From the NCBI RefSeq assembly GCF_003334355.1, contig NZ_QOWP01000120.1: a DNA stretch of 224 nt, one strand, 5' to 3'. Under the pieces are notes generated by a model. That model searched no databases. It worked only from the letters and a program-made list of their open reading frames with translations, and was not told the DNA's origin. Within the stretch, counting starts at the first letter, position 1. Every line of letters starts with the position of its first letter. A program made the translations under genes and the position numbers. Below are positions 1 through 224 of the stretch, one piece after another. Source of the DNA: Escherichia coli (lineage in GTDB: Bacteria > Pseudomonadota > Gammaproteobacteria > Enterobacterales > Enterobacteriaceae).

Positions 1-16
1 AATTTGAGAGACTCAC

Positions 17-34
17 GAACAACTTTCGTTGTTC
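17..34 (-). other. Small spacer hairpin with GAAA (GNRA) tetraloop
   Basis: Perfect inverted repeat gaacaac (17-23) and gttgttc (28-34) around a 4-nt loop. In minus-sense RNA this is GAACAAC-GAAA-GUUGUUC, a 7-bp stem with a GNRA tetraloop. No U-tract follows in the transcript (next bases are GUGAGUCUCUCAAAUU), so it is not an intrinsic terminator. Confidence 0.5.
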
Positions 35-60
35 AGTGTTTCAATTTTCAGCTTGATCCA

Positions 61-75
61 GATTTTTAAAGAGCA
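61..75 (-). promoter_or_regulatory. Spacer boxA antitermination element (binding site for the NusB/NusE-containing rrn antitermination complex)
   Basis: Minus-strand sequence TGCTCTTTAAAAATC (+ strand gatttttaaagagca) contains the boxA core GCTCTTTAA, close to the rrn leader boxA TGCTCTTTAACAA. It sits immediately 3' of a hairpin in the transcript, the boxB-then-boxA order described for rrn leader and spacer regions. Confidence 0.7.
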
Positions 76-76
76 A

Positions 77-114
77 ATATCTCAAACATCACCCGAAGAT
101 GAGTTTTGAGATAT
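77..114 (-). promoter_or_regulatory. boxB-like stem-loop with UUCG tetraloop, upstream of spacer boxA in the transcript
   Basis: Minus-sense RNA AUAUCUCAAA-AC-UCAUC-UUCG-GGUGA-UG-UUUGAGAUAU. Outer stem is 10 perfect bp (77-86 with 105-114). Inner stem is 5 bp including one G-U wobble that pairs only in minus-sense RNA (it would be a C/A mismatch in plus sense). The stem closes a C(UUCG)G tetraloop (+ strand cgaa at 94-97). Confidence 0.6.
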
Positions 115-148
115 TAAGGTCGGCGACTTTCACTCACAAACCAGCAAG

Positions 149-224
149 TGGCGTCCCCTAGGGGATTCGAACCCCTGTTACCGCCGTGAAAGGGCGGTGT
201 CCTGGGCCTCTAGACGAAGGGGAC
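149..224 (-). tRNA. gltT|gltU|gltV|gltW: tRNA-Glu (anticodon UUC), complete 76-nt gene with encoded 3' CCA
   Basis: Reverse complement of 149-224 reads GTCCCCTTCGTCTAGAGGCCCAGGACACCGCCCTTTCACGGCGGTAACAGGGGTTCGAATCCCCTAGGGGACGCCA. It folds as a cloverleaf: acceptor stem GTCCCCT/AGGGGAC (7 bp), discriminator G, CCA; anticodon stem CCGCC/GGCGG with loop CTTTCAC (anticodon TTC, + strand gaa at 188-190); T-arm AGGGG/CCCCT with loop TTCGAAT. It matches E. coli tRNA-Glu as I remember it. The paralog cannot be resolved from 224 bp; the symbol lists the four E. coli K-12 copies. Confidence 0.95.

Follow-up and report, generated by a model that had tools for sequence, protein, structure and literature searches.

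How does a tRNA whose gene lies between two rRNA genes obtain its mature 3′ terminus: is the terminal CCA specified by the gene itself, and how is the RNA that follows it removed? This question is raised by a 224-nucleotide stretch of Escherichia coli DNA (the window), which can be identified with high confidence as the antisense strand of a 16S-23S rRNA spacer from an rrn operon of the tRNA-Glu type. Very probably, the window encodes the CCA of tRNA-Glu(UUC) at positions 151 to 149, this CCA is followed by a trailer of 193 nucleotides that extends to the 23S gene (the first eight nucleotides at 148 to 141), and the tRNA is released from its precursor by the pathway proposed below. That the CCA is encoded and that a spacer tRNA has to be excised belong to textbook knowledge of E. 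coli and are not new.

The window is matched at 100% identity by E. coli chromosomes, and in many genomes an annotated tRNA-Glu lies beneath the match. In O157:H7, the locus that is 100% identical to the window has the order clpB, 16S, 85 nucleotides, tRNA-Glu (76 nucleotides), 193 nucleotides, 23S, 5S and kgtP; this operon on the clpB side occupies the position that is rrnG in K-12. Strain 14EC033 displays the same layout, and its RefSeq tRNA-Glu likewise ends at the CCA, as do gltW, gltT, gltU and gltV of K-12 MG1655, each of which is annotated as 76 nucleotides long within the same rrn arrangement. Of 5,426 complete E. coli genomes, 5,394 contain a sequence at least 95% identical to an 81-nucleotide query centred on the junction between the CCA and the trailer, and the median number of copies per genome at this threshold is four. 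The spacer/tRNA-Glu segment is also present in a few plasmid copies among E. coli genomes (10 places in the search with the window, five in the search with the junction), and in XL1-Blue the best match is broken in two and lies where no feature is annotated.

Both strands of the window were checked for open reading frames, which are limited to three of 20-26 amino acids, all on the + strand and none with support, and a search of the window for promoter-like and terminator-like sites gave none. Matches to the Rfam models for SNORD24, plastid psbI-rps4, mascRNA and the Tymo tRNA-like structure scored far below the respective gathering scores and were taken to be chance resemblances or echoes of the tRNA T-arm. 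In practical terms, the window can be used as an annotation anchor, being antisense to the rrn spacer with the tRNA 3′ end at position 149. The features assigned within it are collected in the table.

Features of the 224-nucleotide window, with the basis on which each was assigned
Feature	Position	Strand	Basis
tRNA-Glu(UUC) body, tRNA positions 1-73, including the discriminator G73	152..224	-	ARAGORN, Rfam RF00005, K-12 alignment, RefSeq
Encoded 3′-terminal CCA (tgg on the + strand), expected mature tRNA 3′ end	149..151	-	Direct read, RefSeq annotation, related copies
Linker CUUGCU, trailer nucleotides 1-6, predicted to be mostly single-stranded	143..148	-	Motif scan, pairing probabilities
Small hairpin GGUUUGUGA-GUGAAAG-UCGCCGACC, trailer nucleotides 7-31	118..142	-	ViennaRNA fold, RNAalifold
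Stem-loop with a 16-bp stem, boxB-like position, part of the removed trailer	76..115	-	Inverted repeat, fold
boxA-like UGCUCUUUAAAAA, directly after the stem-loop	75..63	-	Recognised by sequence
StyR-44 (RF01830), 5′ two-thirds, cut by the window end (truncated 3′)	1..71	-	Rfam

ARAGORN reports a single gene in the window, a tRNA-Glu with the anticodon UUC (ttc) at 149-224 on the - strand, with the CCA included. The Rfam tRNA model (RF00005) matches from 224 to 152 with a score of 60.1 bits, relative to a gathering score of 29 (E = 5.7e-13), and its match stops at the discriminator G at position 152, which the CCA adjoins without a gap. Read directly, the + strand at positions 141-151 is CCAGCAAGTGG, the reverse complement of which is CCACTTGCTGG, and the trailer located directly 3′ of the CCA, at 148 to 141 on the - strand, is CUUGCUGG (also written CTTGCTGG). 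The trinucleotide itself is unremarkable in number, occurring four times in the window where about seven occurrences would be expected; the significance of this particular CCA lies not in its count but in its placement right after the acceptor stem and the discriminator base. An initial sequence-only reading had held that the CCA at 149-151 (tgg on the + strand) is encoded and that the trailer begins immediately after it, and had proposed annotated tRNA-Glu coordinates as a check. Both statements hold: the trailer is found by direct reading where it had been placed, the 76-nucleotide RefSeq tRNA-Glu has its 3′ end at window position 149, the RefSeq coordinates of the O157:H7 gene and of K-12 gltT, gltU, gltV and gltW end there, and three papers agree that the CCA is encoded, describing it as a feature of every one of the 86 tRNA genes of E. 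coli (PMC4681348, PMC6961547, PMC5824355).

It could be supposed that the CCA at this position is a coincidence and that the functional CCA is added post-transcriptionally, given that many bacteria possess some tRNA genes without an encoded CCA and that 53 of the 65 tRNAs of S. coelicolor have their CCA added (PMC4681348). In E. coli, with CCA encoded in all of its tRNA genes, the CCA-adding enzyme serves for repair rather than synthesis and is dispensable for de novo maturation (PMC4681348, PMC6961547, PMC5824355), and E. coli tRNAs as a group end, when mature, at the encoded A76 without CCA addition (PMC6961547, PMC5824355). Conservation points in the same direction. The 26-nucleotide 3′ half of tRNA-Glu, taken without its CCA, was used to scan one genome per species and returned at least 120 loci, mostly from Gamma-, Beta- and Alphaproteobacteria; of the 174 copies of the tRNA 3′ half among the matches listed, 173 have CCA directly after the discriminator base, relative to a chance expectation of 1 in 64. 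The conservation count and the literature together effectively refute post-transcriptional addition as the origin of this CCA, leaving it with almost no probability.

The sole exception among the matches listed, which taken alone would lend some support to an added CCA, is a copy with CAT in place of CCA in Pantoea sp. Brub, a metagenome-assembled genome labelled as an insect symbiont. The CAT is on the - strand of its locus, immediately beyond the match (256-281), and the genome of this symbiont is rich in A+T. This copy seems to have lost its encoded CCA and would need the CCA-adding enzyme.

Conservation of the trailer as a whole along with the tRNA was also considered and can be ruled out, as the 8-mers that follow the CCA are highly diverse outside the Enterobacterales among the matches listed. 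In an alignment with K-12 gltT, gltU, gltV and gltW, all 76 tRNA columns and the first 24 nucleotides of the trailer are invariant, and downstream of these the window combines, as a mosaic, stretches of the K-12 rrnB, rrnC, rrnE and rrnG spacer variants. Thus, GCCGAC is present as in rrnB and rrnG, the hairpin as in rrnB, rrnC and rrnE, and CGAAAG as in rrnC and rrnE, the closest K-12 spacer overall being that of rrnB, with one mismatch. This mosaic pattern fits gene conversion between rrn operons and would then represent ordinary allelic variation.

Residing within the rrn transcript, 85 nucleotides after 16S and 193 nucleotides before 23S, the tRNA needs to be excised. As gene order and the literature indicate, tRNA-Glu is co-transcribed with the 16S, 23S and 5S rRNAs, and, again from the literature, RNase III cuts the 16S and 23S stems, which leaves the tRNA on a spacer fragment. 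The 5′ end of the tRNA would be made by RNase P, in line with the general model. On the 3′ side, an endonuclease, most probably RNase E, would cut the short single-stranded stretch after the CCA, with candidate cuts (marked by a bar) at A-C|UU after trailer nucleotide 1 and at GG|UUU after nucleotide 8, and the remaining one to eight nucleotides would be trimmed by 3′-to-5′ exonucleases that halt at the CCA. Addition of CCA would be unnecessary in this scheme, the CCA-adding enzyme just repairing damaged ends. The proposal follows the E. coli model, in which an endonucleolytic cut a few nucleotides 3′ of the CCA is succeeded by exonucleolytic trimming (PMC4681348, PMC6961547, PMC5824355), and in which the literature attributes the trimming back to the CCA to RNases T, PH, D, II and BN. 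Conversion of the rrn precursor into rRNAs and tRNA-Glu has been described as involving RNases III, E, G, R and T, PNPase and YbeY (PMC5179076). The same work proposes an additional promoter within 16S, from which the spacer tRNA could at times be expressed independently of the full rRNA precursor.

The in vivo consensus of RNase E is RN|WUU (PMC5222698), and the sole full match that a motif scan detects near the tRNA is GG|UUU, between window positions 141 and 140. This site sits in a predicted stem, with an unpaired probability of 0.01-0.07 (ViennaRNA), which counts against it, as RNase E disfavours base-paired sites. A relaxed match, A76-C|UU, is located between positions 148 and 147, in the linker, where the unpaired probability is approximately 0.7, and the CUUGC of this linker is conserved in Rosenbergiella, Pantoea and Photorhabdus. 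Mapped cuts of other E. coli tRNAs, such as CCAc|t|a and CCActt|tt, fall 1-4 nucleotides after the CCA (PMC4681348, Table S4) and resemble CCAC|UUG at this locus; RNase E is likewise described as cutting 1-3 nucleotides downstream of each encoded CCA (PMC2190699). By analogy with these sites, and given the predicted pairing, a cut within the CUUGCU linker would be favoured.

Conceivably, RNase E is dispensable here, and the tRNA is released either by RNase BN/Z, which has endo- and exonucleolytic activity, or by processive 3′-to-5′ exonucleases that start from the RNase III cut near the 23S 5′ end. Maturation of tRNA 3′ ends through tRNase Z/RNase BN is possible (PMC4681348), the abundant cleavage that dRNA-seq detects downstream of the spacer tRNA-Glu is described as “of unknown origin” (PMC4681348), and on tiling arrays the rrn spacer signal rises just slightly when RNase E is inactivated (PMC3082872). 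However, exonucleases acting alone would need to traverse some 186 nucleotides with three predicted hairpins, one of which has a 16-bp stem, and the abundant 5′ ends downstream of the tRNA point to endonucleolytic cuts (PMC4681348). The general E. coli model also favours RNase E, and release without this enzyme is considered unlikely.

A shorter course would be for RNase E to cut exactly after A76, maturing the 3′ end in one step without exonucleolytic trimming. Such a pathway is known in E. coli for proK, proL and proM, but it is described as requiring that the mature 5′ end be a C (PMC8860583), and tRNA-Glu starts with G1. Moreover, the context of A76, C-A|C-U-U, is a poor fit to RN|WUU, with C at both the -2 and the +1 position. 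One-step maturation of tRNA-Glu is therefore highly improbable. The proline tRNAs nevertheless temper one statement of the sequence-only reading, namely that the mature tRNA must be released from the rRNA precursor by endonucleolytic and 3′ exonucleolytic processing: release of this kind fits the accepted E. coli model and the location of the tRNA within the rrn transcript, but exonucleolytic trimming is an expectation rather than a logical necessity, and “must” overstates it.

For the preferred pathway, in which an endonucleolytic cut is followed by trimming, the last trimming step would probably be carried out by RNase PH or by enzymes other than RNase T, a preference that reflects the C at the start of the trailer and the G at the discriminator position. 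RNase PH is inactivated by the rph-1 allele. The preference for RNase PH or enzymes other than RNase T is inferred from the argument that RNase T is inhibited by C and that such tRNAs are probably finished by RNase PH or others (PMC6961547). K-12 laboratory strains are given as rph-1 in a strain table (PMC4191395), and RNase PH therefore cannot be obligatory.

No assignment of a nuclease to the tRNA-Glu trailer, or of a cut site at nucleotide resolution, was found in the literature searched. RNase F is a historical spacer-tRNA activity, and a literature search on it returned no match. The supplement of PMC4681348 contains no entries for gltT, gltU, gltV or gltW, and its Table S4, which gives 3′ processing sites for 12 E. 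coli tRNAs, does not list tRNA-Glu; there are no glt or rrl entries in the supplements of PMC4191395, and PMC7049720 contains nothing on rrn tRNAs.

The hairpin that begins six nucleotides after the CCA holds the GG|UUU motif in its stem. Among eight enterobacterial trailers, a small sample from five genera (two E. coli variants, one Rosenbergiella, two Photorhabdus, two Pantoea and one Morganella), RNAalifold identifies compensatory changes at six of the eight stem pairs, and the GUGAAAG loop is invariant. The conserved GUGAAAG hairpin is only a small addition to the known biology of this spacer. It might act as a processing determinant that blocks downstream 3′ exonucleases, offers CUUGCU to the endonuclease and fixes the point of release, or the released trailer fragment might be functional in the manner of the leuZ 3′ETS; such roles are considered unlikely.

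The longer stem-loop farther along the trailer and the UGCUCUUUAAAAA segment that follows it presumably represent, judging by their appearance, the boxB and boxA antitermination elements of the rrn spacer. The hairpin arms of K-12 rrnG differ in sequence and look like a compensated stem variant. The StyR-44 match (81.5 bits relative to a gathering score of 54, E = 3.5e-13) is located just upstream of 23S, and its 5′ end falls within the boxA-like segment. StyR-44 was cloned as an RNA from this part of the spacer; it belongs to the ribosomal operon and may be no more than a metastable intermediate of rRNA processing (PMC2943607).

Comparisons can be made with several known systems. The K-12 genes gltT (rrnB), gltU (rrnC), gltV (rrnE) and gltW (rrnG) have the same 76-nucleotide tRNA, the same first 24 nucleotides of the trailer and the same position between 16S and 23S, whereas their spacers differ from the window, in mosaic fashion, further downstream. 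Other E. coli tRNAs with mapped 3′ cuts likewise have an encoded CCA with the trailer directly after it, but the trailer of tRNA-Glu is an rRNA spacer leading to 23S, whereas in those tRNAs it leads to another tRNA or a terminator. The proline tRNAs of E. coli share with tRNA-Glu both the encoded CCA and an endonucleolytic cut on the 3′ side; as described in PMC8860583, they require C1, and the G1 of tRNA-Glu leads to the expectation that, unlike the proline tRNAs, it undergoes exonucleolytic trimming. Finally, tRNA genes without CCA, including most of those in S. coelicolor, have in common with tRNA-Glu the need for trailer removal, but the CCA that is supplied there by the adding enzyme is, in tRNA-Glu, templated by the gene.
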